A stretch of DNA of 64,000 nucleotides. It comes from an uncultured Bacteroidales bacterium (GTDB taxonomy: Bacteria; Bacillota_I; Bacilli_A; ML615J-28; CAG-698). Shown here one piece after another: positions 1-31,809 of this stretch (position 1 is the stretch's first letter; every line of letters starts with the position of its first letter). The position numbers and the translations under genes were made by a program. The stretch covers positions 45,174-109,173 of the forward strand of contig CAYOXB010000001.1 of assembly GCA_964407835.1 (NCBI GenBank), read 5' to 3'. A model generated the notes under the pieces. It was given only the letters and a program-made list of their open reading frames with translations, searched no databases and had not been told where the DNA came from.

Positions 1-691
1 TGCAAATTATATTGTTATTGCTTCAGGGAGTATAGCTCAAGAAAAAACAAGAATGTATGATATTCTAAGTAAACTTGGTCATTCTATTACAAATTTAAGA
101 CCAGGATTAGTTCCATTAAAAGTAAAAGAAGATATTAGATCATTACAAGGAATAAGAATTAAATGTAATGCTAAGGTTTTTAATGATAGCAAAATAGTTC
201 ATGAAGAAGCTGGCGAGATATTATTCAAACCTGATGGGTTATCAGGTGTACTTGTATTAAACTTATCAAGATTTGTTCAGGATAATAGTGAAGTAAGCTT
301 GGATTTATTTTACGATTTTGAAGATATTGAAAAATATATTAGAAGCTTTTTAGATAAAAAAGATATCTTGGAAGTTTTATCTAGTTTATTACCAAAAATG
401 TTAGCTCAGTATATTACTAAACTTACAAATAGTTTTGAAGAAGTGATCAAGATTGTTCGTGATTTAAGATTTAAGATAACTGGCGATTACGGATATAATA
501 TAGGACAAATTGTAATTGGTGGTCTTAATGTTAATGAAGTAAGCGAAGACTTTGAATCTATATATTTGCCTAATATTTATATAATCGGTGAAGTGCTCAA
601 TATTGATGGAGCAAGTGGTGGATATAATTTGCACTTTGCTTGGAGTAGTGCAATTTATAGTGCAAAGAGCATTTTTGAAAAAAATTTGTAA
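1..691 (+). CDS. FAD-binding flavoprotein, HI0933/YhiN (aminoacetone oxidase-like) family; C-terminal part, 5' end outside window
   Basis: Reading frame is open from base 1. The C-terminal motif 'GQIVIGGLNVNEV...GEVLNIDGASGGYNLHFAWSSAIYSA' is typical of HI0933-like flavoproteins. Confidence 0.55.
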   Translation, partial: ANYIVIASGSIAQEKTRMYDILSKLGHSITNLRPGLVPLKVKEDIRSLQGIRIKCNAKVFNDSKIVHEEAGEILFKPDGLSGVLVLNLSRFVQDNSEVSLDLFYDFEDIEKYIRSFLDKKDILEVLSSLLPKMLAQYITKLTNSFEEVIKIVRDLRFKITGDYGYNIGQIVIGGLNVNEVSEDFESIYLPNIYIIGEVLNIDGASGGYNLHFAWSSAIYSAKSIFEKNL

Positions 692-750
692 ATGTTTACT
701 ATAGGACTAAATTATAGTATAATAATATATAAGTAAGGAGATAACTATTA

Positions 751-1365
751 ATGAATTTACCAAATAAGTTAACCATTGCAAGACTTTTCGCAATACCCTT
801 AATTATAATAATAACACTAATAGAATATTTTAAAGTTACAACAGTTTTTCAAGGAGTCAATTATATAATAACTTTAGAAAACTTATTAATTTTAATAGTT
901 TTTCTAATAGCTGCTTTTACGGATTTCCTAGATGGACATATTGCAAGAAAGTATAACCTGATTACAGACTTTGGGAAGTTCTTAGACCCTTTAGCTGATA
1001 AACTGCTTGTGCTTGCAGCAATGATATATTTAGTAGAACAGGGTAGTTTCATAGTATTTGGTATTAGTTTTGGTTTTGTAGTTACTATTATATTTGCAAG
1101 AGAGTTTATGGTAACAGGAATGAGACTGTTAGCAGTTGATAACAATGTAGTTATTGCAGCTAGCAATTTAGGTAAATTTAAGACAGTTTCTCAAATGTTA
1201 TTAGTTATAATTCTTCTTATAGATGGTTTACCATTAGCTTTGATTAGTGAACTAGCAAAAAATATTTTTGTGTTAGCAGTTATTTTACTAGCTGGAATAT
1301 TAACTGTTGTTTCAGGAATAGATTATTTTATAAAAAATAAAGGTTTAATTACAAATAAAAAATAG
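751..1365 (+). CDS. pgsA: CDP-diacylglycerol--glycerol-3-phosphate 3-phosphatidyltransferase
   Basis: CDP-alcohol phosphatidyltransferase motif 'DFLDGHIARKYNLITDFGKFLDPLADKLL' in a multi-TM protein. Position immediately upstream of recA matches Firmicutes. Confidence 0.8.
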   Translation: MNLPNKLTIARLFAIPLIIIITLIEYFKVTTVFQGVNYIITLENLLILIVFLIAAFTDFLDGHIARKYNLITDFGKFLDPLADKLLVLAAMIYLVEQGSFIVFGISFGFVVTIIFAREFMVTGMRLLAVDNNVVIAASNLGKFKTVSQMLLVIILLIDGLPLALISELAKNIFVLAVILLAGILTVVSGIDYFIKNKGLITNKK

Positions 1366-1374
1366 GAGTAAAGA

Positions 1375-2358
1375 ATGAGTGAAGTAAAAACAAAAGCATT
1401 AGAGGATGCGTTAAAACAAATAGAAAAACAATTTGGTAAAGGCTCAGTAATGAAACTTGGTGATAAATCAATTGGAGAAATAGAAGTTATTCCTTCCGGA
1501 TCAATTTCTTTAGATATAGCTCTTGGAGTTGGTGGTTATCCAAAAGGAAGAATTATTGAAATATATGGACCTGAAAGTAGTGGTAAAACTACCTTTGCGC
1601 TTCATGCAATTGCAGAAGCACAAAAACTTGGTGGTTATGCAGCATTCATAGATGCTGAACACGCACTTGATCCAAACTATGCAAGAAATCTAGGTGTAGA
1701 TATTAATAACTTAATATTGTCTCAACCAGATACAGGAGAACAAGCTTTAGAAATTGCTGAACATTTAATTAGAAGTGGAGCTGTTGATATAGTAGTTATT
1801 GACTCTGTTGCTGCTTTAGTGCCAAAAGTTGAAATAGATGGAGATATGGGAGATACTCATATTGGTATGCAAGCTAGGCTAATGTCTCAAGCAATGAGAA
1901 AATTAAGTGGAGCAATATCAAAAAGTAATACAATAGCAATCTTTATTAATCAAATTAGAGAAAAGGTTGGTGTTATGTTTGGTTCTCCAGAAACAACTTC
2001 AGGTGGACGTGCACTAAAATTCTATGCTACTATCCGTCTTGATATTAGAAGAGTTGACGCAATTAAACAAGGCACTGATATTATAGGAAACTTAACAAGA
2101 GTTAGAGTTGTAAAAAATAAAGTTGCACCACCATTTAAGGCGTGTGAAGTTGATTTAATTTATGGTAAGGGTGTTTCCTATGAAGGAGAAGTACTTGATT
2201 TAGCTGTTAATAACGATATTATTAAGAAGAGTGGTTCTTGGTTTTCTTATGAAGATGAGAAATTAGGGCAAGGAAGAGAGAACGTAAAAGAGTACTTAAA
2301 GAACAATCCAAATCTATTAAAAGAGTTAGACAATAAAATTAGAGAAATATTAAAATAA
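1375..2358 (+). CDS. recA: Recombinase RecA
   Basis: Walker A 'GPESSGKTT' and conserved RecA blocks 'FIDAEHALD' and '[23 protein letters not shown]'. RBS 'GGAG' upstream. Confidence 0.97.
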
Positions 2359-2392
2359 AAAGTCAAAGTCATTCTTTGACTTTTTGTATATT
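2359..2392 (+). terminator. Rho-independent terminator after recA
   Basis: Hairpin aaagtcaaag/tcattc/tttgacttt followed by a T-tract. Confidence 0.7.
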
Positions 2393-2410
2393 ATGTGGCA
2401 TTTATTTTAA

Positions 2411-2439
2411 TTGACTATAATGATTAGTTAATGTATAAT
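2411..2439 (+). promoter_or_regulatory. Sigma-A type promoter for rny
   Basis: -35 TTGACT (2411-2416), a 17-nt spacer, then extended -10 TGTATAAT (2432-2439). Confidence 0.55.
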
Positions 2440-2492
2440 AATATAGTAAACAATAAAGATAATAATGTTTATATTAGATATATGGAGGTAAT

Positions 2493-4112
2493 ATGGTACA
2501 AGTATTAGGATTTATAGTTCTAAGTGCTTGGACAATTCTAGCTCATATTATTCTTCCATTATTGCTATTGATTTTAGGGGCAGGCACTGGATATTATTTA
2601 ATTAAACTTCATTTTAAAAAGGCAGGAAAATCTGCAGAAAAAATAATTGAAGATGCCAATAAAGCTGTTGAAGAAAATCGTAAAAAGGTTTTAGTTGAAT
2701 CTAAACAAGAAATATTTAGACTTAGACAAGAAAATGACAAAGAGATTCGCAATTCAAGACAAGAAGCAGAGCGAGATATAAAAGAACGTCGCAGAACGTT
2801 AAATGAATTGGAAAGCAAATTAATCAAACGAGAGGAAAGAATTGATAATCGTTTAAACAATTTAGACAGGAGAGAAGAATCTTTAAATCAAAAAGAACAA
2901 AAAATCGATAAATTAAAGGCAGATCTTGAAAAACAATCAGGCAAATTGGAAGAATTAATTGATTTGCAACATCAGAGATTATTAGAAGTCTCTGGTTTGT
3001 CAGTAGAAGAGGCCAAGCGAATAATTTTAGAACGTATCGAAGAAGATATGACTTTAGAAATTGCTGCTATTATTAAAGACGGTGAAGAAAAAGCCAAACT
3101 GGAAGTGAATAGAAAAGCTCAAGACTTACTTGCTAATGCTATTCAACAATATGCTGCTGAAGCAGTTATGGAAAAAACAGTTTCGGTTGTTCCTTTACCA
3201 AATGATGAAATGAAAGGGCGAATTATAGGCCGTGAAGGTCGTAATATTCGTGCAATCGAAGCATCAACAGGTGTTGATATCATTATAGATGATACGCCTG
3301 AAGCAGTTGTACTTTCAAGCTTTGATCCAGTTAGAAGAGAAATTGCAAAAAGAACATTGGAAGCTTTAATCGCTGATGGAAGAATTCAACCTACTAGAGT
3401 TGAAGAACTTGTATCTAAATTCACAAAAGAATTAGATACAGAAATCCGTGAAGCAGGAGAAAAAGCAGTATTTGAATTAGGTGTTGGTAGAGTCCATCCT
3501 GAATTAGTTAAACTAATCGGTAGATTAAAGTTTAGAACAAGTTATGGACAAAACGCATTAGCTCACTCAATGGAAGTTGCATTTTTATCAGGTAAATTAG
3601 CTGTTGAAATCGGTCTTGATGAAGTTAAGGCAAAAAGAGCTGGACTTCTTCATGATATCGGTAAAGCCGTGGATCACGAAGTTGAAGGGAGTCATGTAGA
3701 AATAGGTTTAGAATTAGCACGTAAATTCAAAGAGATTCCAGAAGTAATTGATGCTATTGGCTCACATCATGGTGATCAAGAAGCTACATCACTTATCTCA
3801 CAATTAGTAGCTGCAGCAGATGCACTTAGCGCTGCAAGACCGGGTGCTAGAAGTGAATCGTTAGAAAATTACATTAAACGTTTAACAAAGCTAGAAGAAA
3901 TATGTAATGAATTTAGCGGTGTAGATAAGTCATATGCTTTACAAGCTGGTAGAGAAGTAAGAATTCTTGTAAAACCTGAAGAAATTGGTGACTTAGAAGC
4001 TCATAAATTAGCTAGGGATATTCGTCAAAAAATAGAAGACGATATTAATTATCCTGGAACAATTAAAGTTACTGTAATTCGCGAAACAAGAGTTCAAGAA
4101 ATTGCAAAGTAA
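2493..4112 (+). CDS. rny: Ribonuclease Y
   Basis: N-terminal TM segment, a long coiled coil, a KH domain ('[13 protein letters not shown]') and an HD domain ('[12 protein letters not shown]...GSHHGD'). Confidence 0.95.
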
Positions 4113-4151
4113 AAGATTTTATATTGTTAATATATAAATCAAAATAAAGGC

Positions 4152-4187
4152 ATTTTAGTTTATACTAAAACGCCTTTTTTCTTTGTT
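4152..4187 (+). terminator. rny terminator
   Basis: ggcattttag/tttatac/taaaacgcc followed by TTTTTT. Confidence 0.7.
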
Positions 4188-4212
4188 TTAAAATGAGAAT
4201 ATAATATATAAA

Positions 4213-4243
4213 AAAGCATTTCATTTCTGAAATGCTTTAGTTT
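4213..4243 (-). terminator. Terminator of the minus-strand lipoprotein gene
   Basis: Hairpin agcatttca/ttt/ctgaaatgct. On the minus strand it is followed by a T-run. Confidence 0.6.
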
Positions 4244-4244
4244 A

Positions 4245-6134
4245 TTAGTTTGCAGGGATTGTTGAATAGTAGTTTTTAGTTTGAACAAATCCTGTAGAAG
4301 GATTTTCAACTGTAATTAAGAAACTTATTTGAGTTGTAGTCGCAGGTAACTTAACTATTCTACCATTATTATTAACAAGATCCGGATTATTTGAAACTAG
4401 AGTTAAGTTATAATCGCCTAGGAATTTTTCTACTAAATATTCTGCTTCAATCATATTTAATAAATTAGGGATTAATCCATTCATTCTCATAGTTTGAGGA
4501 CAGTTTTTACCACTATAGTTTTGGTGGAAAGTAACTCTTTCTAAACCTAAATCAAATTCATGTAATAAGTGTGAAGTTAATTTAGAAGTATAATGCCATG
4601 TTAAATACAAGTCACTGCCTTTATCTACACATGTTTCCATACTAACACTATTATAGTTACCACCATGATTAGAAATTAGTTTATAAGTAGTGTTATAGTA
4701 ACTATTATTCATATACCAATTTCCGTTTGTGCCAATTTCTAAGTAAATCCCATAGTCATTAATAGCAGAGGCTTTTAATATATTATTATTCGAATCTTTA
4801 GGTGCTTGAATAATAGTTTTTGCACCATTAAGTGTATAGAAACCACTAGCATCAATTCCAAGAGTTGGTCTAATTTTACTTGTTGCTTTAACGCCTGTAT
4901 CGTTTAAACCGAATTTTCTTGAACCATCTCCAGCATGCCATGTAGGTCTGTTAGTTTCAACTTGTTGATAAACACCTTCTTGCCCTACACTAAAATGCCA
5001 AGATACTTGTCCGCCACCACTTCCATTATACATATAAGTAGCGTGCATTGCTGCACCTGCATTAACATTTGTATTACCAGTATCATGAATAGTAATAAAT
5101 TTTACATCTTCCTTATTCATTACATTTGTAATAGCAGGTAAGTTTGGCGAGTTTTCAGGTGTCATTCTTCTAACAAAAGGATATTCTCCGAAGAAATAGT
5201 TAACTACGCTTCCCAATACTTTTGTTGTGTAGTTTGTCCCACCATATGCAGTTACGTTTTGAACGATTGGTTTATCAACAACTAAATGGTCGATTAAATC
5301 CATAACATCCCAATAGAATTCTACTTTTAGAGTTCCTTTTTTAGTTCCATCTTGAATTGATTTAGCAGTAAATGTAACTTCGCCATAACTAACTATAGTT
5401 ACAAATCCATCTTCACCAATAGCAGCAATACTGTCATCGCTTGTTTCCCATACTACGTTTTGATCCGCAGCTTTTGGAAGAACAGTTGCTGATAGTTTAT
5501 AATTGGCTGTTGTTTTGATTCTAGTGTCATTAATATTTGCACTAATATTTACTTCACTAACAGCAGCTTCAGTAACTTCAATAGTAAATGCTTTGCTAGT
5601 CCCATTTTCAAGTGAATGCACTTCAAATTGGGCAACCCCAGGTTTAACACCAGTAACTAGTCCTGTTTGGCTAACTTTAGCAATACTAGCAGTTAATGCA
5701 ACCCACATAACACCGTGTCCAGTATCTGCTTTATCAACAGCTGTAAGTTGAATTTCTTCACCAGCAATAACAGTAGTCGGGCCAGTCACTGTTAATTGAG
5801 TAGCTGGATCAATTTCCTCTTCATTTACTTTTACATTAATAGTTATTTTTAGTTTAGGATACTCTTCAACAGTAACCGTGATTTTAGCACTACCAGATTT
5901 TAATGCTGTAATTTTTCCGTCTTCGTCTACGCAGACAACGTCTTCACAATCAGATTCAAATTTAAATTTTACATTGTTTTCTGTACCATTTACTTTAGGT
6001 AGAATAACTTCCTCATCACCTATTTCTAAGGTTAGGTTAGATTTAGAAGCGCTTAAAGTAACGTCTTCAGTATTGTTACAACCTACTAATAGAAAACCGA
6101 TTAAAACAAAAAGTAAGATAATACTTTTTTTCAT
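4245..6134 (-). CDS. Lipoprotein with Big_2 (bacterial Ig-like) domain and amidase_2-type N-acetylmuramoyl-L-alanine amidase domain (paralog 2)
   Basis: Lipobox 'LLVGCN'; Big_2-like 'GSAKITVTV'; amidase_2 signature 'IHDTG...SWHFSVG...WHAGDG...ETCVDKGS...HQNYSGKNCPQ'. Confidence 0.7.
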   Translation of the reverse strand: MKKSIILLFVLIGFLLVGCNNTEDVTLSASKSNLTLEIGDEEVILPKVNGTENNVKFKFESDCEDVVCVDEDGKITALKSGSAKITVTVEEYPKLKITINVKVNEEEIDPATQLTVTGPTTVIAGEEIQLTAVDKADTGHGVMWVALTASIAKVSQTGLVTGVKPGVAQFEVHSLENGTSKAFTIEVTEAAVSEVNISANINDTRIKTTANYKLSATVLPKAADQNVVWETSDDSIAAIGEDGFVTIVSYGEVTFTAKSIQDGTKKGTLKVEFYWDVMDLIDHLVVDKPIVQNVTAYGGTNYTTKVLGSVVNYFFGEYPFVRRMTPENSPNLPAITNVMNKEDVKFITIHDTGNTNVNAGAAMHATYMYNGSGGGQVSWHFSVGQEGVYQQVETNRPTWHAGDGSRKFGLNDTGVKATSKIRPTLGIDASGFYTLNGAKTIIQAPKDSNNNILKASAINDYGIYLEIGTNGNWYMNNSYYNTTYKLISNHGGNYNSVSMETCVDKGSDLYLTWHYTSKLTSHLLHEFDLGLERVTFHQNYSGKNCPQTMRMNGLIPNLLNMIEAEYLVEKFLGDYNLTLVSNNPDLVNNNGRIVKLPATTTQISFLITVENPSTGFVQTKNYYSTIPAN

Positions 6135-6245
6135 AATATTCTCCTTTTCTTTATTAAATTACAATATTATTATATCACTTAATATTGAATACTACAATAC
6201 AAAAATAAAGCTAGATTTTACTCTAGCTTTATATGTTTTTTATTA

Positions 6246-8129
6246 TTAAATTTTAATTGTTGAATAGTAGTATTTAGTTGATGTAACACCTGTTGTAGGA
6301 TGAGTTACTTCTACAAGGAAACTTACTTGAGTAGTAGCATCTGGTAATTTAATAATCTTACCATGATTATCTACATATTCAGGATTGTTTGATGTAAGAG
6401 TGAATGTATAATCACCAAAGAATTTAGCAATTAAATATTCAGCTTCAACTAATTTTCTAAAATCCCCAACTAGGCCATTTCTTCTCATTGTTTGTGGGCA
6501 GTTTTTACCACTAAAACTATGGTGGAATTGTTGTCTATCTAAACCTAGGTTATTAGCTAATAATACTTCAGAAACAATTTTAGCTGTATAGTGCCATGTT
6601 AAGAATACATCTGAGCCAGCGTTAACCATAGTTTCAATACCAATACTGTTTCTATTTCCACCTTGGTTAGAAATGTTTGGTCCTTGAGTTGAATAATAAG
6701 AATTATTTATAAACCAATTTCCATTTGTACCGACTTGCATAGCAATTCCATAATCATTAATTGCTGCAGCTGTTAAGATTGAACCATCAGTATGTCTTGG
6801 AGCTTCAACAATTGTTTTTACACCATTAAGTGTATAGAAACCAGTAGAATCAATTCCAAGCGTAGGTTTAATTTTACTTACAGCTTTAACGCCTGTATCG
6901 TTCATCCCATATACTCTTGATCCGTCTGAAGCATGATATGATATTTCATTTAGTGGAATTTGTAGGTAAACACCATCATTACCAATACTGTAATGCCATG
7001 ATGTTCCACCGCCACCATTATATACATAGTTTGCATGTGCAGAAGCAGTTGCTCCTGGTGCAGCTGAACCAGTGTCATGAACAGTAACGAATTCAGTTGA
7101 TGGTTGTAAAATTCCAGGTCTGTTTTCGTTTGTGCTTGGAGCTATCTTTTCATAGTAAGGATATGTTCCAAAATAATAACTAGTTACACTACCTTTAATT
7201 ACTTGAGGATATTTTTCATATCCTGCTTCATAACCATAGTAGAATGCATTTTTATCAACAACAGGATTTTCAATTATAATGTAATCCATTAAGTCCATAA
7301 CGTCCCAATGGAATTCTACTGTAAGAGTAGCTTTCTTTGTTCCATCTTGAATAGATTTAGCAGTAAATGTAACTTCACCATAAGTAGAGATTGTTACAAA
7401 TCCATCTTCACTAATTAAAGCTATGCTATCATCGCTTGTTTCCCATACTACATTTTGATCTGCAGCTTTTGGAAGAACAGTAGCTGATAGTTTATAACTT
7501 GCAGTTGTTTTAATTTTTGCATCACCTATATTAGCACTAATACTAACTTCACTAACTGGAGCTTCAGTAACTTCAATAGAAAAAGCTTTGCTAGTTCCAT
7601 TTTCAAGTGAGTGAACTTCAAATTGAGCAGTTCCAGGTTTTACACCTGTAACTAAACCAGTTTGACTTATTTTTGCAATTCCAGCAGTTAAAGCAACCCA
7701 CATAACACCATGTCCTTGGTCTGCTTTATCAACAGCTGTAAGTTGAATTTCTTCGCCTGCAACAACAGTAGTTGGGCCAGATACTGTTAATTGAGTAGAA
7801 GGATCAATTTCCTCTTCATTAACAGTTACATTAACAGTTGCTTTTAGTTTAGAAAATTCTTCAACAGTAACGGTAATTTTTGCACTACCAGATCCTACAG
7901 CTTTTACTTTCCCTTCTGCATCAACTGTTGCAACTTCTAAATTATCTGATTCAAAATTAAATTTGACATCTTTTTCTGTACCTTCTATTTTAGGTGTGAT
8001 AACTTTTTCTTCCCCAATTTCTAGTGTTACACTAGTTGGTGAAGCGCTTAAAGTAACGTCCTCAGTTTTATTACAACCTACTAATAGAAAACCGATTAAA
8101 ACAAAAAGTAAGATAATACTTTTTTTCAT
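6246..8129 (-). CDS. Lipoprotein with Big_2 domain and amidase_2 domain (paralog 1)
   Basis: First 20 aa identical to the 4245-6134 product. Residues about 100-280 are nearly identical, while the C-terminal amidase_2 half is diverged ('VHDTG...SWHYSIG...IGIETMVNAGSD...HHSFSGKNCPQ'). Confidence 0.7.
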   Translation of the reverse strand: MKKSIILLFVLIGFLLVGCNKTEDVTLSASPTSVTLEIGEEKVITPKIEGTEKDVKFNFESDNLEVATVDAEGKVKAVGSGSAKITVTVEEFSKLKATVNVTVNEEEIDPSTQLTVSGPTTVVAGEEIQLTAVDKADQGHGVMWVALTAGIAKISQTGLVTGVKPGTAQFEVHSLENGTSKAFSIEVTEAPVSEVSISANIGDAKIKTTASYKLSATVLPKAADQNVVWETSDDSIALISEDGFVTISTYGEVTFTAKSIQDGTKKATLTVEFHWDVMDLMDYIIIENPVVDKNAFYYGYEAGYEKYPQVIKGSVTSYYFGTYPYYEKIAPSTNENRPGILQPSTEFVTVHDTGSAAPGATASAHANYVYNGGGGTSWHYSIGNDGVYLQIPLNEISYHASDGSRVYGMNDTGVKAVSKIKPTLGIDSTGFYTLNGVKTIVEAPRHTDGSILTAAAINDYGIAMQVGTNGNWFINNSYYSTQGPNISNQGGNRNSIGIETMVNAGSDVFLTWHYTAKIVSEVLLANNLGLDRQQFHHSFSGKNCPQTMRRNGLVGDFRKLVEAEYLIAKFFGDYTFTLTSNNPEYVDNHGKIIKLPDATTQVSFLVEVTHPTTGVTSTKYYYSTIKI

Positions 8130-8286
8130 AATATTCTCCTTTTCTTTATTATTGCATTAATATTATAACATTTTAAATACAAAAATACAATAAAACGATT
8201 TCAAAAAAAGTATAATATTTATTATTATGCTATCTTTATTGCTTAGGTTATATCTATATGATATAATTTAATTTATGGAGAGTGTA

Positions 8287-9063
8287 ATGAAAGTATTAAT
8301 TGTGGGAGATGTATTCTCAAAATTAGGTAGAGCTAGTTTTGAGGAAAATCTTAAAATTTTAAAAGAAAAAGAAAAGATTAATTTCGTAATTGTGAATGGT
8401 GAAAACACATCACACGGAAAAGGCATGAACGAAGGCCATTATAAATGGTATATGGAACAAGGAGTTAATGTTATTACGCTTGGCAATCATGCTTATAATA
8501 ATAAGAGTATCTTGAAAATCATTGATAACGTTAATAATATTGTTAGACCATATAATTTTCCTGAAGGTTCACCGGGGAAGGGTTATACAACAATTAACTA
8601 TAATAATTTAAAGATTACTGTGTTTCAAATGCAGGGAAGAGTTTTTATGGATAATAGTAATGGGTGTCCTTTTAAGAGTGCAAAGGAATTTTTAGAAAAT
8701 GCTGAAGGTGATATATTTATTTGCGATTTTCATGCCGAAACAACAAGTGAAAAAATTGCATTTGGTTATGCTTTTGCGGGACAAATCCAGGTTATTTTTG
8801 GGACTCATACCCATGTTCAGACAAATGATGCAAGAATATTAGATGGTGGGACTGCTTATATTACTGATGTTGGAATGACAGGACCACTTGATGGTGTAAT
8901 TGGAGTTGAAAAAGGAATAATAATTGATCGTTATTTTAATGATTCGCAACAAAGATTTAAACCTCAAGATACTGGTAAGAAGCAGTTTAGTGCGATAATT
9001 GTTGAAATTGATGAGAAGACAAAAAAAGCTGTTAGTATTGAGCCAATTAGGATTATACATTAA
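8287..9063 (+). CDS. ymdB: YmdB-family metallophosphoesterase (2',3'-cyclic-nucleotide phosphodiesterase)
   Basis: 'MKVLIVGDVFSKLGR...VIVNGENTSHGKG...GNHAYN...GTHTHVQTND' is TIGR00282-like. RBS GGAGAGTG precedes the ATG at 8287. rny-ymdB linkage is conserved in Firmicutes. Confidence 0.85.
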   Translation: MKVLIVGDVFSKLGRASFEENLKILKEKEKINFVIVNGENTSHGKGMNEGHYKWYMEQGVNVITLGNHAYNNKSILKIIDNVNNIVRPYNFPEGSPGKGYTTINYNNLKITVFQMQGRVFMDNSNGCPFKSAKEFLENAEGDIFICDFHAETTSEKIAFGYAFAGQIQVIFGTHTHVQTNDARILDGGTAYITDVGMTGPLDGVIGVEKGIIIDRYFNDSQQRFKPQDTGKKQFSAIIVEIDEKTKKAVSIEPIRIIH

Positions 9064-9072
9064 AAGAAAAGA

Positions 9073-9645
9073 GTGACGTATATGGAATTGCCAAAAATTG
9101 AAACATCAAGATTGATATTAAGAAGGATTGAACTCGATGATGCTGCTGATATGTATGAATATGCAAAATTATCAAGTGTAGGCCCTCAAGCTGGTTGGCA
9201 ACCACATATGTCAATTAATGAAACAAAAGCAATCATTAAATTATTTAATGGTAAAGAAAAATATGGTCAACCTGGAGTTTTTGCTGTTGTTCTTAAAAGA
9301 GAACATAAAATGATAGGTACTATTGAACTTCATACATATACTAAAGATTATAAAGCTGAGTTAGGGTATACTATAAATCCAAGCTATTGGGGAAATGGTT
9401 ATGCTGTAGAAGCATCAAAAGCAGTCCTTGCTTGGGGATTTGAAGAGTTAAATTTGAAAAGAATAGAGTGCAATACCTTTGCAAACAATTTTAGATCAAT
9501 AAGAGTTTGTGAGAAACTTGGATTAACCTTTGAAGGTATAAAAAGAAAAGGCTATATGTTATATGATGGTAATTTCCATGATATTGCAGCATATGCCATA
9601 ATAGACGAAGATTTTTTCTATAAAACATTCACAAAAGATTGGTGA
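9073..9645 (+). CDS. GNAT family N-acetyltransferase (RimJ/RimL-like)
   Basis: Acetyltransf_3-like pattern 'TSRLILRRIELDDAADMYEY...GYTINPSYWGNGYAVEA'. Confidence 0.7.
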   Translation: MTYMELPKIETSRLILRRIELDDAADMYEYAKLSSVGPQAGWQPHMSINETKAIIKLFNGKEKYGQPGVFAVVLKREHKMIGTIELHTYTKDYKAELGYTINPSYWGNGYAVEASKAVLAWGFEELNLKRIECNTFANNFRSIRVCEKLGLTFEGIKRKGYMLYDGNFHDIAAYAIIDEDFFYKTFTKDW

Positions 9646-9650
9646 TAAGA

Positions 9651-10430
9651 ATGAAAAGAAAATTTGTTTTAATAGTAGTATTGTTGATTACTTTGTTTTT
9701 ATCTGCTTGTGATGTCAGTGGTGGAATGGGAAACAAGGTTTCTGCAGAAACACTAAATCATATAAGCACTGTTGTTATGAATGGAAATATAAAGATAAGT
9801 ACAACTCTATTTGAAATAAAGAACAATAGTCGCGTTGAACTTCCTTATCGAGGATACGGTAGTGGTGTTATTATCAAAATAGAAGAAGATGAAAACAGTA
9901 CTTATTATTATATTCTTACAAATTTTCATGTAATTGATTTGGGTTCAAAACTTTTAGAAGAAGAACATGATGAAGAAGCAGAATATGAATACTTACATGA
10001 ATTAGTTGATGTATATGGTAATATAGAGTTGGGCGAAGTAGTTTATAAAAATAAAGAAGATGACTTAGCTTTAATTAAAATGATTTCATATGCTGAATTA
10101 TATGTTGTTGAATTGGCAGAAGAAAATCCTGCTATATATGATATGGTCTTTTCCATTGGTAGTCCTGAAAATAAAAGCAATGTTGTAACGGCTGGAAAGA
10201 TTGTTGGCTATCCTCCATATGAAAAAGTATCATATAATATTATTTCTCATAAGGCTTATATATTTAGGGGAAGCAGTGGAAGTATGCTAATTAATGAAGA
10301 TTATAAATTAGTAGGTTTAAATACATGGGGCTTAAACCCAAAAGATAAAGATATAAATGATGGGTTTGAAAGAGGTGGAGCAATTCCGATTTTAATAATC
10401 CATGATTTTCTAGAAGAATATTTCAAATAA
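9651..10430 (+). CDS. Trypsin-like (S1 family) serine peptidase lipoprotein
   Basis: Lipoprotein signal 'LFLSAC'. Catalytic triad context: His ('LTNFHVID'), Asp ('DLALIKM'), Ser ('GSSGSMLIN'). Confidence 0.6.
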   Translation: MKRKFVLIVVLLITLFLSACDVSGGMGNKVSAETLNHISTVVMNGNIKISTTLFEIKNNSRVELPYRGYGSGVIIKIEEDENSTYYYILTNFHVIDLGSKLLEEEHDEEAEYEYLHELVDVYGNIELGEVVYKNKEDDLALIKMISYAELYVVELAEENPAIYDMVFSIGSPENKSNVVTAGKIVGYPPYEKVSYNIISHKAYIFRGSSGSMLINEDYKLVGLNTWGLNPKDKDINDGFERGGAIPILIIHDFLEEYFK

Positions 10431-11616: not shown

Positions 11617-13050
11617 ATGGCAAAAGATTATAGTAAATATTTTACTCCATCTTTAAAAGATGCGAGAAAAAGATTAAGTAAAGATACTCCAACAATTAAC
11701 TATAACTTACCTGAACATTTAATGGGTTTAGGAAAAGGTAGAACATATATTATAAAAACATATGGATGTCAAGGTAATTTGGCTGACAGTGAAAAGATTG
11801 CAGGAATATTAGAAGCAATGGGATATTCAGCTGTTGATCTAGAAGAACACGCTGATATTATTGTTTTTAATACTTGTGCAATTCGAGAGAATGCTGAAAA
11901 CAGAGTTTTTGGAGAACTTGGAAGAATCAAAGGTTTAAAACAAATAAACCCTGATCTTTTGATGATTGTTAGTGGTTGTATGCCACAAGAAGAAAATGTT
12001 GTTCAAAGAATATTAACGAAATATACGCAAGTTGATATTGTTTTTGGAACACATAATATTCATAAACTTGGAGAATATATCTATAGCGCTTATCTAAGTA
12101 AAGAAAGAGTTGTAGAAGTTTTTTCAAAAGAAGGAGAAATTGTAGAAGGCCTTCCTACAAAAAGAGACCATGATAAAAAAGCATGGGTTAATATAATGTA
12201 TGGTTGCGATGAGTTTTGTACTTATTGTATAGTTCCTTATACAAGAGGAAAAGAAAGATCAAGATCGCCAGAAGATATAATTGAAGAAGTAGAAGAATTA
12301 ATATCAGAAGGCTATCAAGAAGTAACCTTATTGGGCCAAAATGTTAATGCATATGGGAAAGATTTGAATATTGATTACACATTTGCAAATCTGTTAGAAG
12401 ATTTAAGTAAACTGAAAATACCTAGAGTTAGGTTCACTACATCTCATCCAAGGGATTTAGATAATCAAACAATTGAAGTTATGGCAAAAGGTAAAAATAT
12501 AATGCCTCACCTACACCTTCCTGTCCAATCTGGAAGTAATAGTGTTTTAAGGAAAATGAATAGAAAATATACAGTTGAAGAATATTTGAAAAAGATTAAG
12601 AAGCTAAAAGAATTAATTCCAAACATTTCTATAACTACTGATATTATTGTGGGTTTTCCAACTGAAACTGATGAAGATTTTGAAGCTACAATTAAGCTTG
12701 TGGAAGAAGCTGACTTTGAAGGAGCTTATACATTCATTTTTTCAGCTAGAGAAGGAACTCCTGCATATAAATATGAAGATAACTTAACAAAGGAAACCAA
12801 AAAAGCTCGTTTAATTAAACTTAATACTTTAATAAATGAAGGGTATTTAAAAGGTAACAAGAGATTTGTTGGTGAACTTGTAAAAGTTCTAGTTGATGGT
12901 AAAAGCATTAAGAATCCAGACATTTTAACTGGGTATACAGAACACAACAAAGTTGTTAATTTTGAAGGCGATGAAAGCCTGATTGGTAAAATTGTAAATG
13001 TTAAAATAGAAAAAGCATTTACTTGGCATTTAGCAGGAAAATTAGAGTAG
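11617..13050 (+). CDS. miaB: tRNA-i6A37 methylthiotransferase (radical SAM, MiaB family)
   Basis: MTTase N-domain 'YIIKTYGCQGN', radical-SAM 'GCDEFCTYCIVP', C-terminal TRAM domain. Neighbourhood is the same as B. subtilis ymcB near ymdB. Confidence 0.8.
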   Translation: MAKDYSKYFTPSLKDARKRLSKDTPTINYNLPEHLMGLGKGRTYIIKTYGCQGNLADSEKIAGILEAMGYSAVDLEEHADIIVFNTCAIRENAENRVFGELGRIKGLKQINPDLLMIVSGCMPQEENVVQRILTKYTQVDIVFGTHNIHKLGEYIYSAYLSKERVVEVFSKEGEIVEGLPTKRDHDKKAWVNIMYGCDEFCTYCIVPYTRGKERSRSPEDIIEEVEELISEGYQEVTLLGQNVNAYGKDLNIDYTFANLLEDLSKLKIPRVRFTTSHPRDLDNQTIEVMAKGKNIMPHLHLPVQSGSNSVLRKMNRKYTVEEYLKKIKKLKELIPNISITTDIIVGFPTETDEDFEATIKLVEEADFEGAYTFIFSAREGTPAYKYEDNLTKETKKARLIKLNTLINEGYLKGNKRFVGELVKVLVDGKSIKNPDILTGYTEHNKVVNFEGDESLIGKIVNVKIEKAFTWHLAGKLE

Positions 13051-13103
13051 CAAACTATCAGATATAGTTTGCTTTATTTAATACAAATATAATAGGAGGG
13101 CAT

Positions 13104-13889
13104 ATGGAAGCTACTATAATAGTTAAAGATCTTACTAAAACCTTTAAACTATCTAAAAAACAAATGAAAATTGATAAAGCAGATAATAACTTAAAAGTCG
13201 CTGTTAACAATATTTCATTCTCTGCTTACGAAGGAGAGATATTTGGACTGCTTGGTCCAAATGGAGCGGGCAAGACAACTGCACTTAGATGTATTGCAAC
13301 CTTAATCAAACCAGATAAAGGAGATATTGAAGTTGCTAGAATTAAAGATGATGAAGTAGAGATAAAAAAGAAAATAGCATTTCTTACAAATGAATTAAAA
13401 TTAGAAGAACAATTCACTCCTAATTATTTATTTGATTATTTTGCTAGTTTTCACGAATTAGAACCTAAATTCGTTAAAGATAGAAAAAATGAATTGTTTA
13501 AAAGATTTGGTATAGACGAGTTTAAGGAAGTTAAAATTGGAGAATTATCTACTGGGATGAAACAAAAGGTATCTATTGTTATAGCCCTGGTTCACGATCC
13601 AGAGATTATTATTTTTGATGAACCAACTAATGGTCTTGATGTATTAACAGCTAAAGTTGTTACTGATTATTTATTAGAATTAAAAGATAAAGGAAAAACA
13701 ATCATAGTATCTACTCATATAATGTCACTTGTGGAAAAAATATGTGACAGAGTTGGGATTATAATAAATGGGAAGATGGTTTTAAGCGATACAGTAAGCA
13801 ATGTTTTAAGTATGTATCCTAATACTGATATCGAAGGTGTATTTTTTAAATTGTACAGTGAGGAATATGCAAATGAAGAACGTATTTAG
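13104..13889 (+). CDS. ABC transporter ATP-binding protein (NatA-like)
   Basis: Walker A 'GPNGAGKTT', signature 'LSTGMKQK', Walker B 'IIIFDEPT'. Confidence 0.85.
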   Translation: MEATIIVKDLTKTFKLSKKQMKIDKADNNLKVAVNNISFSAYEGEIFGLLGPNGAGKTTALRCIATLIKPDKGDIEVARIKDDEVEIKKKIAFLTNELKLEEQFTPNYLFDYFASFHELEPKFVKDRKNELFKRFGIDEFKEVKIGELSTGMKQKVSIVIALVHDPEIIIFDEPTNGLDVLTAKVVTDYLLELKDKGKTIIVSTHIMSLVEKICDRVGIIINGKMVLSDTVSNVLSMYPNTDIEGVFFKLYSEEYANEERI

Positions 13890-15096: not shown

Positions 15097-15107
15097 AATT
15101 ATTGTAA

Positions 15108-15272
15108 ATCTTCAGGGCAGGGTGAGATTCCCGACCGGCGGTAAAGTCCGCGAGCTTGAAAGAGCATGAATTGGTGAAACTCCAATACCGATAGTATAGT
15201 CTAGATGAAAGAAGAGCTATATTTAATATGCTTTTTTTTGCTCGCGAAGTTTTTTCGCGAGTTTTATTTTTT
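15108..15272 (+). promoter_or_regulatory. FMN riboswitch (RFN element) with terminator expression platform
   Basis: Matches the RFN consensus: 'cagggcagggtgagattcccgaccggcggtaaagtccgcgagc...ggtgaaactcc...ccgatagtatagtctagatg'. It is followed by the hairpin 'ctcgcgaagttttttcgcgag' plus TTTTATTTTTT (15241-15271). Confidence 0.85.
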
Positions 15273-15291
15273 AAAAAGAAAGAGGGTTATT

Positions 15292-16185
15292 ATGTTTTTA
15301 AGTAGTTTTTGGCAAGATCATTGGTTAGAAATTAGTGTTTCTACAGTGTTTGTGCTAGCAAGTATTGCTTTACTTGTTGCACTGGTTATTAATATCGGAA
15401 AGCAAGAAACAAGCAAAAAAGTCTATGTAATAGGAAGTTTTATATTTGCACTTGTATTGTTCAGTGTTAACTTCTTTATTTATAAAGATTATAAGAATGC
15501 ATTGAGTCAAGACCCGACTACTGAATTTCCACTTGCAAATGTTTTTGCATATAATGCACTTATAATTATTGCATTTTCTCTAGTTGGTTACTTAGTTATC
15601 TCAAGGAGGAATAAAGAAGAAGAAAAAATGACAGTTGCTAATGTTGCAATGTTAAGTTTATTAGTAGCACTATCAACAGTATTGATGTTGTTTGGAATAC
15701 CAATACTACCTGGATTTACATTTTTAAAAGTTGAAATTAGTGCTTTAATTTATTTCTTAGTTTATTTGTGGTTTGGAATAAAACCAACAACGGTAGTCAT
15801 TTTTCTTACAAATATAATTCATGCTATTATGCCATCATTTGGTGTTCAAATTGTACCTGGACTTGATCAAATGGTAAATGTTATAGCAGTATTTACATTT
15901 TTGTTTCCTTCATTTATTGCATTTAGGAAATTAGAAGAAGGAGAAGTTCCACCGTTTAAATCTGTTTTAGTTTGTACTATAATAGGCGTTGTGTTTACTT
16001 CAGTCTTTATGCTTTTATATAATTACTTTATAAATTTACCACTTATTTATGGTATGAATATGTCATTTGAGGATGTGCTAAAAATATTTGGGTTATTTAA
16101 TATTATAAAATGGAGTACTGTTAGTGCTGCCATAGTATTACTATACAAAAAACTATATGAATTGAAGAATCAATTAGTAAGATAA
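15292..16185 (+). CDS. Membrane protein, putative riboflavin transporter (ECF S-component/RibU-like C-terminal half)
   Basis: RBS AAGAAAGAGGG before ATG 15292. The protein is multi-TM. The ORF-track start at 15205 lies inside the riboswitch and is rejected. Confidence 0.6.
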   Translation: MFLSSFWQDHWLEISVSTVFVLASIALLVALVINIGKQETSKKVYVIGSFIFALVLFSVNFFIYKDYKNALSQDPTTEFPLANVFAYNALIIIAFSLVGYLVISRRNKEEEKMTVANVAMLSLLVALSTVLMLFGIPILPGFTFLKVEISALIYFLVYLWFGIKPTTVVIFLTNIIHAIMPSFGVQIVPGLDQMVNVIAVFTFLFPSFIAFRKLEEGEVPPFKSVLVCTIIGVVFTSVFMLLYNYFINLPLIYGMNMSFEDVLKIFGLFNIIKWSTVSAAIVLLYKKLYELKNQLVR

Positions 16186-22967: not shown

Positions 22968-23029
22968 TCAATAAGATTGACAAGGAACAAAAGAAGTTGT
23001 ATAATAATTAATATAAAACTGTGAAGTGG

Positions 23030-23236
23030 ACAAGATTAATAAAATTTTTATTTATAGCGAAAGTATGATAGTGAAAGATACTTAATAAAACTTATTAGTT
23101 ACTACCGTGGAGTTGAACTCGAAAGAGATTCCGTTATTCAGCGTTAATGAAATTGAGCGCAGTAGTGTTTTTAAACACTATTGAATTAAGGTGGTACCAC
23201 GTTATAATACGTCCTTTTTAGAAGGGCGTTTTTATT
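23030..23236 (+). promoter_or_regulatory. T-box leader (Thr) upstream of thrS
   Basis: Conserved T-box 'aattaaggtggtaccacg' (23184-23201), then the terminator cgtcc/tttttagaa/gggcg plus a T-run (about 23208-23236). Stem I region with ACU/ACC candidates ('ttagttactaccgtgg'). Confidence 0.8.
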
Positions 23237-23251
23237 TTTTAGGAGGATAAT

Positions 23252-25162
23252 ATGAAAATTAGTTTTTTAGATGGAAGTGTGAGTGAATATAAAGATGGCC
23301 TAAGTGCTATGGATATTGCTAAAAGCATATCTCCATCTCTAGCAAAGAAATCAATATTTGCTAAAGTAAACGGTGAAGATTATGATTTGAACAGACCAAT
23401 ACTAGCTGATGCAACACTTGAATTAATTACAAAGGAGAGAGTTGAAGCTTTAGAAGCTTTGAATCATTCTTGTAGTCATTTACTTGCAAGTGCTGTTAAG
23501 AAATTATATCCGAAGGCACAATTTGGAGTTGGTCCAGCAATTGAAGAAGGATTCTATTATGACATTAATCCTGGGGATAATGTTAAGATAACTGAAGCTG
23601 ATCTAGTTAAAATAGAAGATGAGATGAAGAAAATTGCTAGTAAAAATTATGATTTTATTCGTGAAGAATTATCAAAAGAAGAAGCTTTGAAGAAGTTTTC
23701 TTATGATAAATACAAACAAGAAATTATAAATGAACTTGAGGATGGTGTAGTTATTTCTACATACACTCATGGGGATTTTTCTGATCTTTGTAGAGGACCG
23801 CATTTAGATAATACTAAGCATTTAAAATATTTTAAATTACTTAATATTAGTGGTGCCTATTGGAGGGGAGATTCTAAAAATGAGCAGCTTCAAAGAATAT
23901 ATGGAACATGCTTTTTTAATCAAGAAGATTTGAATAAGCACTTAGAAGTATTAAAAGAAAGAGCTGAGAGAGATCATCGTAAACTTGGGCGTGAGCTTGA
24001 ATTATTCATGTTAAGCGAATATGGTCCTGGCTTTCCTTTCTGGTTACCTAAGGGTATGATTCTTCGTAGAGCACTAGAAGAATACTGGTTCAAGGTTCAC
24101 ACTAGAGAAAATTATCAGTTCATTCAAACTCCAATTATGCTTAATAAAGACTTATGGGAGATATCAGGACACTGGTTAAACTATAAAGATAATATGTATA
24201 TTTCAGAAATTGACAAGCATGAATTTGCGATTAAACCGATGAATTGTCCTGGAGGATTGTTGGTATATAAACACTCCCTACACTCATATAAAGACCTTCC
24301 TCTTAGAGTTGGTGAACTAGGATTAGTTCATAGACATGAAGCAAGTGGGGCTTTAAATGGCTTATTTAGAGTAAGAAACTTCACTCAAGATGATGCTCAT
24401 ATCTATATGAGAGAAGATCAAATTATCGATGAAGTAGGAAATTTAATTAAATTATTTGATGAAATTTATTCAGTTTTTGGTTTGAAATATCACATTGAAT
24501 TATCTACAAGGCCTGAAGAAAAGTATATTGGGTCTATCGAAGTTTGGGATAAATCAGAAAAAGCACTAGCAAAAGCATGCGAAGCAGTAGGAAAAAATTA
24601 CAAAGTAAATCCTGGTGATGGAGCGTTTTATGGACCTAAATTAGACTTCAAATTACGCGATTCAATGAATAGAGTATGGCAATGTGGAACTATTCAGCTA
24701 GATATGAATTTACCAGAAAGATTTGATATATTCTATATTGGTGAAAATGGTGAGAAGGTTAGACCAGTTATGCTACATAGAGCTATTTTTGGTTCGCTTG
24801 AAAGATTTATTGGAATTTTAATTGAACATTATGGTGGAGCTTTTCCAACATGGCTTGCCCCTGTACAAGTAAAACTAATTCCGGTTAATAATACTTATCA
24901 TTTAGAGTATGTAAATAAAGTGAAAGATATTTTATTAGATGCTAATATTAGAGTAGAAGTAGATTCTAGAGAAGAAAAATTAGGCTATAAAATTAGAGAA
25001 GCACAAACTAAGAAAATACCTTATCAATTAATTATTGGTGATAATGAGGTTAAAGAAGAAGTTTTAACTTATCGTGCTTATGGTAAGCAAGAATCAGTAA
25101 CTTTATCTATTCTCGAATTTGTGGAAAAAATTCAAAAAGAAATTAAAAACTTAGGTCAATAG
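23252..25162 (+). CDS. thrS: Threonine--tRNA ligase
   Basis: TGS domain, editing domain with 'HSCSHLLA', and class II core. Confidence 0.97.
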   Translation: MKISFLDGSVSEYKDGLSAMDIAKSISPSLAKKSIFAKVNGEDYDLNRPILADATLELITKERVEALEALNHSCSHLLASAVKKLYPKAQFGVGPAIEEGFYYDINPGDNVKITEADLVKIEDEMKKIASKNYDFIREELSKEEALKKFSYDKYKQEIINELEDGVVISTYTHGDFSDLCRGPHLDNTKHLKYFKLLNISGAYWRGDSKNEQLQRIYGTCFFNQEDLNKHLEVLKERAERDHRKLGRELELFMLSEYGPGFPFWLPKGMILRRALEEYWFKVHTRENYQFIQTPIMLNKDLWEISGHWLNYKDNMYISEIDKHEFAIKPMNCPGGLLVYKHSLHSYKDLPLRVGELGLVHRHEASGALNGLFRVRNFTQDDAHIYMREDQIIDEVGNLIKLFDEIYSVFGLKYHIELSTRPEEKYIGSIEVWDKSEKALAKACEAVGKNYKVNPGDGAFYGPKLDFKLRDSMNRVWQCGTIQLDMNLPERFDIFYIGENGEKVRPVMLHRAIFGSLERFIGILIEHYGGAFPTWLAPVQVKLIPVNNTYHLEYVNKVKDILLDANIRVEVDSREEKLGYKIREAQTKKIPYQLIIGDNEVKEEVLTYRAYGKQESVTLSILEFVEKIQKEIKNLGQ

Positions 25163-30708: not shown

Positions 30709-31809
30709 ATGTCAGTAATTAGTAAAAATCAATTACTTGAAGCGGGTGCCCATTTCGGTCATAACACTCGCCGCTGGAATCCGAAAATGAAAGAATACAT
30801 TTTTGGTGAGAGAAATGGGATTTATATTATCGATTTAGATAAAACAGTAACGAAAGTTGAGGAAGCATATAAAGAGCTTTTCACAATCGTTCAAAACAAT
30901 GGTAGAGTTATTTTTGTAGGAACTCGTAAACAAACACAAGATGTAATTAAAGAAGAAGCTACAAGAGCTGGTCAATTTTATGTTGATCAACGTTGGTTAG
31001 GAGGAACTCTTACTAACTATAAAACAATACGTCGTAGTATTGGTAGACTATTTGAAATTGAAAAAATGGAAGAAGAAGGCGTATTTGAAGTACTACCTAA
31101 AAAAGAAGTTTTATTAATTAAAAAAGAAAAAGAAAAACTAGATAAATTCTTCAACGGAATTAGAGAAATGAAAGCAATGCCTGAGGCTATGGTTGTTGTA
31201 GATCCAAAGAGCGAACACATTGCAGTTAAAGAAGCTAGAAAATTAGGTATTCCTATTTTTGGTATTGTTGATACTAACTGTGATCCAGATGAAGTAGATT
31301 TTGTTATCCCAGCAAACGATGATGCTATTAGAGCAGTTAAATTAATCGTTGGAACACTTGCAAATGCAGTTGTAGAAGCTCAAGGTGGAGTACCAATTGA
31401 AATAGAATTTGTTGATGAACCAGTAGTAGAAGATAGAAACCGTAGAAGTAAAGATAAATTTGCTTCTAGAAAACCTAGAAGACCATATCAAGATAGACAA
31501 AGTTCAGATAAACCTCAGTCAGAAAGACCACAGTCAGATAGACCTAGATATAACAAAGAAGAAAGATCAGAAGAAAAATCTGAACATCCTAGAGCTACAA
31601 AAGCTAAAGTAGAAAAAGATAATCTTGAGGTAAAAGAAGAAAAACCTGTTAAAAAAGTTGTGAAAAAAGAAGAACCAAAAGCTGAAGTTAAAGAAGAAGT
31701 TAAAGTTGCTAAAGAAGCTGAAGTGAAAACTGAAGTAAAAGAAGAAAAACCAAAAGTAGCAAAAGCTAAAAAGGTTGAAGCACCTAAAACTGAAGAGGAG
31801 GCTAAATAA
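30709..31809 (+). CDS. rpsB: 30S ribosomal protein S2 with a long K/E/P-rich C-terminal tail
   Basis: Conserved S2 core '[10 protein letters not shown]...RWNPKM'. There are about 120 extra C-terminal residues of charged low complexity. Confidence 0.95.

Follow-up and report, generated by a model that had tools for sequence, protein, structure and literature searches.

Tandem predicted lipoprotein amidase genes between rny and ymdB in an uncultured member of the Bacilli, one of them probably a chimera of two paralogous lineages

A stretch of 64,000 nucleotides from the metagenomic contig CAYOXB010000001.1 (the whole of which is referred to here as the window) carries, on its minus strand, two open reading frames (ORFs) arranged head-to-tail, gene B upstream (6246-8129, 627 amino acids) and gene A downstream (4245-6134, 629 amino acids), with the orientation and lengths given by an initial annotation of this DNA. 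The two genes are flanked by rny (2493-4112) and ymdB (8275-9063), both on the plus strand, and lie shortly past pgsA and recA. From their ORFs and Pfam matches, both encode predicted lipoproteins made of three Big_2 domains and an XlyA-like Amidase_2 module. The C half of gene B groups with the genes that relatives carry at the rny/ymdB site, of which it appears to be the resident ortholog. Gene A has the architecture of B but, judging from segment trees and sliding identity, is chimeric, a B-like 5' part being joined to a core of the lineage of P0004, a protein from another metagenome. We place at about three in four the probability of the full explanation developed below, namely that gene A combines a 5' part homogenised with B and the catalytic core of an older paralog, and that both products are lipid-anchored amidases. 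Opposite-strand ORFs within the two genes (5503-5751 and 5878-6249) were regarded as spurious, and no other amidase paralog was found across the 64-kb window.

Both proteins score past the Pfam gathering thresholds for Big_2 (PF02368, 22.8) and Amidase_2 (PF01510, 26), with 71 and 48.9 bits, respectively, for A, and 83.8 and 43.9 bits for B. The Big_2 matches fall in three stretches per protein, spanning residues 23-280 of gene A (5295-6068, minus strand) and residues 23-280 of gene B (7290-8063, minus strand), and the matching PDB profiles are those of the Ig-like domains of Hoc-like, intimin and LigA proteins. Both proteins start with MKKSIILLFVLIGFLLVGC, and their first 20 residues, lipobox included, are identical, as had been reported. 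Read straight from the sequence, the signal peptides consist of a basic n-region, a hydrophobic h-region and a lipobox of the form [LVI][ASTVI][GAS]C, here LVGC, the cysteine of which (Cys19) is invariant in 15 family members. This arrangement predicts processing by the Sec/SPase II route and tethering of the mature proteins at Cys19 to the outer face of the membrane, with the three Ig-like domains probably serving as a stalk or spacer by which the amidase is positioned within or against the wall.

Upstream of each gene, a pattern search located an extended -10 element with the consensus TGnTATAAT, TGATATAATA for gene A (6168-6177, minus strand) and TGTTATAATA for gene B (8161-8170, minus strand). 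The element of A aligns with that of B and with those of the orthologs in related loci L001 and L002. Both elements were taken from this leader alignment rather than from a sigma-70 scan of the region, which returned 24 sites against 21.8 expected from shuffled sequence and was thus not above background. A terminator-like hairpin followed by a T-run comes after gene B (6205-6232, minus strand) and parts the two transcription units; another, resembling an intrinsic terminator, comes after gene A (4213-4238, minus strand). Since each gene has an extended -10 element and a terminator of its own, A and B are most simply read as separate transcription units. With a nearly identical promoter and ribosome-binding site (RBS), they may nevertheless be co-expressed, and would then share expression signals, export and anchoring geometry.

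Similarity between the two genes is strongly uneven. At the protein level, A and B are 65% identical in the first Ig-like domain (Ig1, residues 23-104), 88% identical over residues 105-280 and 53% identical over residues 281-629. In 30-residue windows along a codon alignment of the pair, identity amounts to 97% over residues 1-30, 57-63% in windows within 31-90, 80-93% within about 105-270, 27-50% within 271-405, 73-77% within 406-450 and 50-63% from 436 to the end. Synonymous (dS) and nonsynonymous (dN) divergences computed on the codon alignment by the Nei-Gojobori method follow suit, with dS and dN of 0.17 and 0.014 for codons 1-30, 0.61 and 0.26 for codons 31-100 (Ig1), 0.57 and 0.07 for codons 101-280 (Ig2-3), 1.6 and 0.57 for codons 281-410, 0.38 and 0.15 for codons 411-450, and 1.18 and 0.35 for codons 451-633. 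Divergence is thus non-uniform by either measure. A maximum chi-square analysis placed a single dominant breakpoint at codon 279-282 (chi-square 94, the largest value among 300 permutations being 15.8), with 83.6% nucleotide identity to its left and 63.5% to its right; the breakpoint persisted at third positions alone (25.3 against a null maximum of 22.4). The mosaic noticed in the initial annotation is therefore real and has a discrete edge, at synonymous as well as replacement sites. In gene A, the putative recombination junction maps to codons 275-280 (5295-5312, minus strand), which encode the WDVMDL linker between Ig3 and the amidase module. Nucleotide similarity collapses directly 3' of this linker, which is conserved family-wide and offers microhomology at the junction.

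The extent and age of the similar part differ from what had been proposed. The central block of about 180 residues was said to be nearly identical even at the DNA level, which overstates the case: its DNA is approximately 84% identical (81-91% in 30-codon windows, dS about 0.57), and the longest exact A/B repeat in the Ig region measures 35 nt (5725-5759, minus strand; partner 7720-7754). Over the whole genes, A and B differ at 27% of nucleotides. Divergence of the N-terminal Ig segment, also reported, is borne out at the protein level but does not mark a recombination boundary: dS is equal in Ig1 and Ig2-3, and only dN differs, arguing for one shared history of the two segments without a 5' breakpoint. 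Ig1 is the least conserved segment in all ortholog comparisons (23-47% identity versus 26-64% for Ig2-3), and a relative-rate test of A against B revealed no significant asymmetry in Ig1, in Ig2-3 or in the N half as a whole. Together with dN/dS ratios (omega) below 1 throughout (0.42 in Ig1, 0.13 in Ig2-3 and 0.30-0.34 in the C half), the faster divergence of Ig1 fits relaxed constraint across the family rather than demonstrated positive selection. Homogenisation by gene conversion, one of the two explanations originally offered, thus holds insofar as recombination between the copies is real; the tract concerned is the whole 5' part rather than a central module, and most of it is old. The proportion of synonymous differences (pS) between the N halves of A and B is about 0.40, roughly half the saturated between-species level, and dS to the nearest sampled relatives is at saturation for recA, rny and the amidase gene alike (1.0-1.2). 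With A/B dS below between-species dS, the N halves appear to have coalesced after the split from these relatives, yet not recently. The C halves of the two genes diverged no later than that split.

Segment trees, built by neighbour-joining on Kimura distances from 15 sequences with 300 bootstraps, are incongruent on the two sides of the breakpoint, as is expected of a recombinant mosaic. In the tree of residues 23-280, A and B are sisters with 100% bootstrap support. In that of residues 281-629, A is sister to P0004 (99%; 100% for the core, residues 281-560), A and B group together in 0% of the replicates, and the C half of B clusters among the rny/ymdB orthologs. Sliding identity likewise shows the best match of A changing from B to P0004 just past residue ~280. 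Two indel regions are common to A and P0004 only: one is a 2-residue insertion ahead of the SWH motif, the other an insertion that precedes the (K/Q)FIT strand. The two proteins also share five substitutions at sites that are 97-100% conserved in 33-34 other members, these being R332 to L or M (in the NRPG motif), P393E, E396 to R or Y, G498S and I499M, of which the last two adjoin the catalytic residue E500. P0004 and the core of A are referred to here as A-type, and B and its orthologs as B-type.

These results bear on the other explanation originally offered, diversifying selection on the ends, taken here in the form of a simple and recent tandem duplication, without recombination with another lineage, in which purifying selection held the middle. 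The tandem arrangement, common architecture and uneven dN are what such a history would produce, and amidase genes do evolve fast between species (dN of 0.34-0.42 versus 0.06-0.14 for recA, rny and ymdB). Against it, the jump in divergence at codon ~280 extends to synonymous sites and third positions, omega stays below 1 everywhere, the core of A is sister to P0004 at 99-100% and never to B, and A has indel regions and substitutions at otherwise invariant sites in common with P0004. The C-terminal end of A is then a different lineage rather than a diversified copy of that of B, Ig1 shows no more than a raised omega of 0.42, and we consider selection-driven divergence of recent duplicates very unlikely.

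Relatives of the locus help to place the two genes. About 14 full-length members of the family were present in the protein collection, and all readable related loci (L001-L005, L010, L086, L102 and L103) harbor a single gene, placed between rny and ymdB or next to either; loci that extend to recA encode a RecA of 91-92% identity. With one copy per relative at this site, the second copy, A, appears specific to the lineage studied here. P0004, in contrast to the genes of these loci, lies away from rny and ymdB, on a 5.5-kb contig of another metagenome (L085) and upstream of a NamZ lipoprotein gene. On that contig (L085 3191-4405), P0004 is followed by the gene for the NamZ exo-beta-N-acetylmuramidase, which likewise starts with a lipobox, LVGC; P0004 and NamZ have separate terminator- and promoter-like signals and appear to be separate transcription units. 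The sample that yielded P0004 also yielded P0007, a B-type ortholog at a ymdB-spoVS site. The N halves of P0004 and P0007 are 31-52% identical, which indicates that homogenisation has not taken place where the two types are not in tandem. In the C half, A and P0004 are 59% identical and B and P0007 57%, similar values that fit, as thin evidence, the vertical descent of two old paralogs. Neither a protein search with the C half of A nor an exhaustive phmmer search and a scan of metagenome DNA yielded any A-type sequence beyond P0004, the next best match standing at 47% in the phmmer search and at 36% in the metagenome scan. One candidate, P0084, matched at 58% and was rejected as being of the B/P0003 type (61% identity to B versus 55% to P0004).

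The rarity of the A-type invites a different account of where it came from, in which horizontal transfer brought in its core, or gene A in its entirety prior to conversion, as opposed to descent from an old paralog within the genome. Only one other A-type sequence emerged from some 15 billion proteins and the genome and metagenome scans, and the sampled loci of relatives are without an A-type copy. Those relatives, on the other hand, are incomplete metagenome-assembled genomes (MAGs) or short contigs, in which absence is weak evidence; the base composition of A is unremarkable (GC content of 0.32-0.35 for both genes, 0.298 for the P0004 contig and 0.296 for the window); mobile-element genes and repeats do not flank A; and the matching C-half identities of the A-P0004 and B-P0007 pairs are as expected if both paralogs descended vertically. 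Transfer is thus a possibility worth keeping in mind, although we consider it unlikely.

A second and younger layer of similarity surrounds the start codons. The only DNA that is perfectly identical between A and B is a run of 81 nt, made up of 22 nt of leader with the RBS and the first 59 nt of the coding sequence (gene A, 6076-6156; gene B, 8071-8151; both minus strand). It includes the RBS AAAGGAG and codons 1-20, and runs through the lipobox Cys19. An exact coding run of 59 nt was met in 0.14% of permutations of the N-half differences. The signal peptides are 95% identical between A and B and at most 76% identical to those of orthologs, a level of variation at which selection alone would not be expected to keep synonymous sites identical. 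The tract is best read, from its sequence, as a later small conversion, a putative recent micro-conversion, and it is the one portion of the similar DNA for which the recency originally claimed seems to hold. Conservation of the 5' leaders, also reported, is confirmed over these 22 nt, the extended -10 element and, in part, to about -75; farther upstream the leaders are unrelated. A short 5'-untranslated region (5'UTR) variant is common to A and B only.

The central block had originally also been viewed as a substrate for recombination and for rearrangements akin to phase variation. In its strongest form, this proposal sees a contingency locus in which the conserved block drives frequent, reversible switching between surface variants, and direct repeats (81 nt at 100% and about 840 nt at 84% identity) are indeed present in two genes that both encode putative surface lipoproteins. 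The region 3900-8500, however, is devoid of promoter-bracketing inverted repeats, simple-sequence tracts and silent cassettes, and has no long identical repeats; both genes are full-length with promoters and terminators of their own; direct repeats, on recombining, would cause the irreversible loss of a copy; the sole recombinase in the window is a XerC of housekeeping type about 21 kb away; and a separately made assembly is identical at 100%. Phase variation is, in our judgment, extremely improbable here. That second assembly, a Logan contig (run SRR8925713), is 100% identical to window positions 1-5754 and ends 30 nt (k-1) into the 35-nt repeat at 5725-5759, precisely where a k=31 graph must branch, which implies that this read set contains both copies. 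The NCBI assembly may derive from the very same reads, in which case the Logan contig adds a second assembler but no second data. The source being an assembly from an uncultured organism, the tandem or the mosaic might be suspected of being an artefact, such as a chimeric MAG contig of strain variants; the copies differ, though, at 27% of nucleotides, their exact repeats (81 nt or less) are shorter than a read, and neither ORF is disrupted, catalytic residues and regulatory signals being conserved in both. We attach next to no weight to this suspicion, and regard the mosaic as a genuine feature. Recombination between modular wall hydrolases that are paralogs, an evolutionary process already known, explains it well.

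The chimera reading of gene A may be set out as follows. B would be resident here, orthologous to the gene found in one copy at rny/ymdB in every sampled relative. The promoter, short 5'UTR, signal peptide and three Ig domains of A, from about -75 to codon 280, would have been copied from or homogenised with B in an event that postdates the split from the nearest sampled relatives but took place long ago, the B-like tract stopping at the WDVMDL linker. The core of A (residues 281-560) would represent a separate, older paralog lineage of which P0004 is the only other known member. Two routes lead to this structure: an A-type paralog may have moved beside B and had its 5' part converted, or B may have been duplicated in tandem and a different core substituted in the copy. 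In Ig2-3, A and B are 55-64% identical to B-type orthologs versus 52-53% to P0004, which favors a B-to-A direction of conversion, although conversion and duplication with core replacement look alike in such comparisons. The second, recent micro-conversion would then have equalised the 81 nt around the start codon.

Several points weigh against this reconstruction. The trees are neighbour-joining only and comprise 15 sequences; the A-type lineage counts two members, one of which, P0004, is known from a 5.5-kb contig, and that P0004 and P0007 belong to one genome is suggested solely by their coming from the same sample. The tail of A (residues 561-629) and residues 406-455 (dS 0.38) do not group with P0004, the placements being without bootstrap support; these segments may reflect extra small conversion tracts or strong constraint. 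In a genome of 30% GC, dS saturates early. The two routes, conversion of the 5' part and replacement of the core, are not separable with these data. Amidase activity, lipidation, the stalk role of the Ig domains and the difference in substrate are all predictions, and the gene content of the window (housekeeping genes and nagA) does not establish that the organism has a peptidoglycan wall.

Turning to the catalytic modules, residues 281-560 of gene A (4455-5294, minus strand) form the core of the rare A-type and residues 281-627 of gene B (6249-7289, minus strand) a B-type amidase module. A and B belong to the Amidase_2 family by profile match and by their predicted alpha/beta fold. The family profile matches XlyA (3hmb, 3rdr) at an E-value of 2.4e-32 in two pieces, profile positions 322-401 and 483-544, the gap between which corresponds to an insertion of approximately 85 residues between HAGDG and GGNxNS. 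The C-terminal 350 residues may thus be described as a putative XlyA-type zinc amidase with an N-terminal beta extension, this beta-rich insertion and a C-terminal beta-sandwich tail, which would cleave the MurNAc-L-Ala bond. The insertion (gene A residues ~405-490; 4665-4922, minus strand) sits inside the Amidase_2 fold, is without counterpart in XlyA and is conserved across the family. It matches no Pfam model, yet few parts of the C half are better conserved (66-77% identity between A and B, dS 0.38).

The zinc ligands H350, H537 and C545 and the catalytic residues E500 and K543 (A numbering) are retained in both proteins, are invariant in alignments of 15 and of 36 sequences, and align with the XlyA motifs VHNT, GIE and H..SGKECP. 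From this invariance, A and B both look catalytically competent, and the loss of catalytic residues in both copies that would have turned them into adhesins is not observed. Three Ig-like domains and extra beta modules are, admittedly, typical of adhesins, and a reading of the pair as non-enzymatic adhesins, or as peptidoglycan-binding receptors of the PGRP kind, could point to changes near the active site: in the A-type, an otherwise invariant Arg is lost and the two residues preceding the catalytic Glu are changed, and B has a unique G402S. With the complete set of ligands and catalytic residues in place in both copies, we view this alternative as highly improbable. The motifs WHAGDG in A and YHASDG in B are as first described, and B alone of 36 family members has Ser for the invariant Gly of HAGDG (G402S; B residue 403, aligned to A residue 402, window 6921-6923). 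Since positions near the active site that are otherwise invariant have changed, A-type and B-type heads may differ in substrate preference; wall remodelling might fall to one enzyme and the turnover or recycling of peptidoglycan to the other.

Beyond these two genes, the 350-residue module reaches E-values of 1e-30 or better in at least 342 clusters at 50% identity. Across the 150 best-matching clusters, for which coverage was read, protein length ranges from 228 to 2568 amino acids, and the aligned part almost always stops close to the C-terminal end. Carriers found by genome scan are mostly uncultured MAGs labelled Bacilli, Acholeplasmat-, Mollicutes or Tenericutes, along with a few other labels. 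The module forms a multigene family whose N-terminal fusion partners vary widely, and two to four copies occur within a few kb in many MAG loci (L044, L050, L051, L056, L061, L065, L070, L072, L081 and L082), which are mostly labelled Bacilli and come from varied sources, some isolate names pointing to animal guts. In L102, where RecA is 92% identical, a separate Amidase_2 gene of 361 codons (208-1293) lies by comEA/comEC, about 10 kb upstream of recA. A literature search on Acholeplasma lipoprotein amidases returned nothing relevant.

Related orders of Bacilli with reduced genomes are reported, in a genome survey, to have lost most penicillin-binding proteins (PBPs) and lyt/cwl hydrolases and possibly to depend on scavenged muropeptides (PMC10868615). 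Given these losses and the role of NamZ in peptidoglycan breakdown (PMC8054146), the family could serve as a replacement set of autolysins, or an A-type enzyme together with NamZ could harvest the peptidoglycan of neighbours, although both suggestions draw, here, on one gene neighbourhood only. A tblastn search for a NamZ homolog in the 64-kb window was negative, the sole related gene being nagA, about 34 kb away; linkage of the namZ/nagZ/murQ type is thus absent from the window and was seen only for P0004 in L085. It is a speculative and, in our opinion, rather improbable idea that the module defines an uncharacterised and widespread family of membrane-tethered amidases in which A and B would be a housekeeping and a scavenging head on a common stalk. 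Were it true, the family could represent the missing autolysin or muropeptide-harvesting system of reduced Bacilli.

Further observations concern the remainder of the window and its counterparts in relatives. In the latter, spoVS directly follows ymdB, cotE directly follows miaB and the gene for the GPR protease lies upstream of recA (sites compared: window 9063-9073 and 13050-13104; L002 8682-8945 and 2075-2593; L102 15830-16093 and 19136-19654). Neither spoVS nor cotE was found at the syntenic sites or elsewhere in the 64-kb window, suggesting a lineage that is losing sporulation genes; such loss has been described for related Bacilli (PMC10868615). A trypsin-like protein with a lipobox-like LSAC is encoded at 9639-10430, overlapping the end of the preceding acetyltransferase gene, and the position of this gene is kept in relatives (Trypsin_2 in L002 and L102). 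An FMN riboswitch (15104-15220, 108 bits) precedes an ORF of 326 codons without NCBIfam match (15205-16185), whose listed ATG overlaps the riboswitch, so that the true start is probably farther downstream. A T-box leader (23012-23219, 103 bits) precedes an ORF of 636 codons (23252-25162), presumably an aminoacyl-tRNA synthetase gene. Ribosomal protein S2 (30709-31809) has 366 residues, of which the S2 profile spans ~1-225, leaving a C-terminal extension of ~140 residues unexplained. The proline-tRNA ligase (38597-39847, 416 residues) matches bacterial profiles of ~560 residues in two pieces and is apparently without the inserted editing domain. Finally, the genome has amino-sugar catabolism, as nagA (GlcNAc-6-P deacetylase, 39883-41025) shows, and encodes a B12-dependent ribonucleotide reductase at 44462-47050.

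If the chimera reading of gene A holds, the locus offers a clean and datable case of wall-hydrolase evolution by the swapping of whole modules, with the junction exactly at a conserved linker, and one type of promoter, signal peptide and Ig stalk serving two catalytic heads of different ancestry. For this locus, it takes the place of explanations by phase variation or by diversifying selection of the immune type. It also draws attention to an unstudied and abundant variant of XlyA-type enzymes, predicted to be lipid-anchored and found for the most part in MAGs of uncultured Bacilli, about whose wall biology little is understood. Should the two heads differ in stem-peptide specificity, they would provide a natural experiment on the contributions of R332, E396, G498 and I499.

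A and B are new members of Amidase_2 with an unstudied accessory architecture. Their closest known counterparts are XlyA, the amidase of prophage PBSX of Bacillus subtilis (3hmb, 3rdr), and the PlyL/LambdaBa02 amidases (1yb0, 2ar3). XlyA, a phage lysin released with a holin, binds the wall through a C-terminal domain, whereas A and B are chromosomal genes at a conserved housekeeping locus, and their products differ from XlyA by the ~85-residue insertion that splits the core, the N-terminal beta extension, the C-terminal beta-sandwich tail and the three-Big_2 lipoprotein format. Identity of the A/B module to AmiA of Atl (4knk), LytA (4x36, 5ctv) and the amidase-2 domain of LysGH15 (4ols) is only 15-17%; the staphylococcal and pneumococcal autolysins are secreted and targeted by repeat or choline-binding domains, in contrast to the predicted lipid anchor and Ig-like stalk of A and B. 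In the AmiE/NagZ/NamZ set of B. subtilis, the exo-muramidase NamZ, NagZ and an extracellular muramoyl-L-alanine amidase dismantle peptidoglycan stepwise (PMC8054146). The likeness to this set lies in the position of P0004 directly upstream of a NamZ gene, a neighbourhood seen in one contig; the difference is that no NamZ gene accompanies A in the window. As an evolutionary process, concerted evolution by gene conversion between tandem paralogs of bacterial surface proteins is general and well described. The A/B pair resembles such cases in having a discrete tract of low dS that ends at a domain boundary, with conflicting trees on either side. It departs from them in that the tract is old (84% identity) and shows no ongoing homogenisation save for the 81-nt start region, and in that the unconverted part of A appears to be a different, ancient lineage rather than a diverged duplicate.

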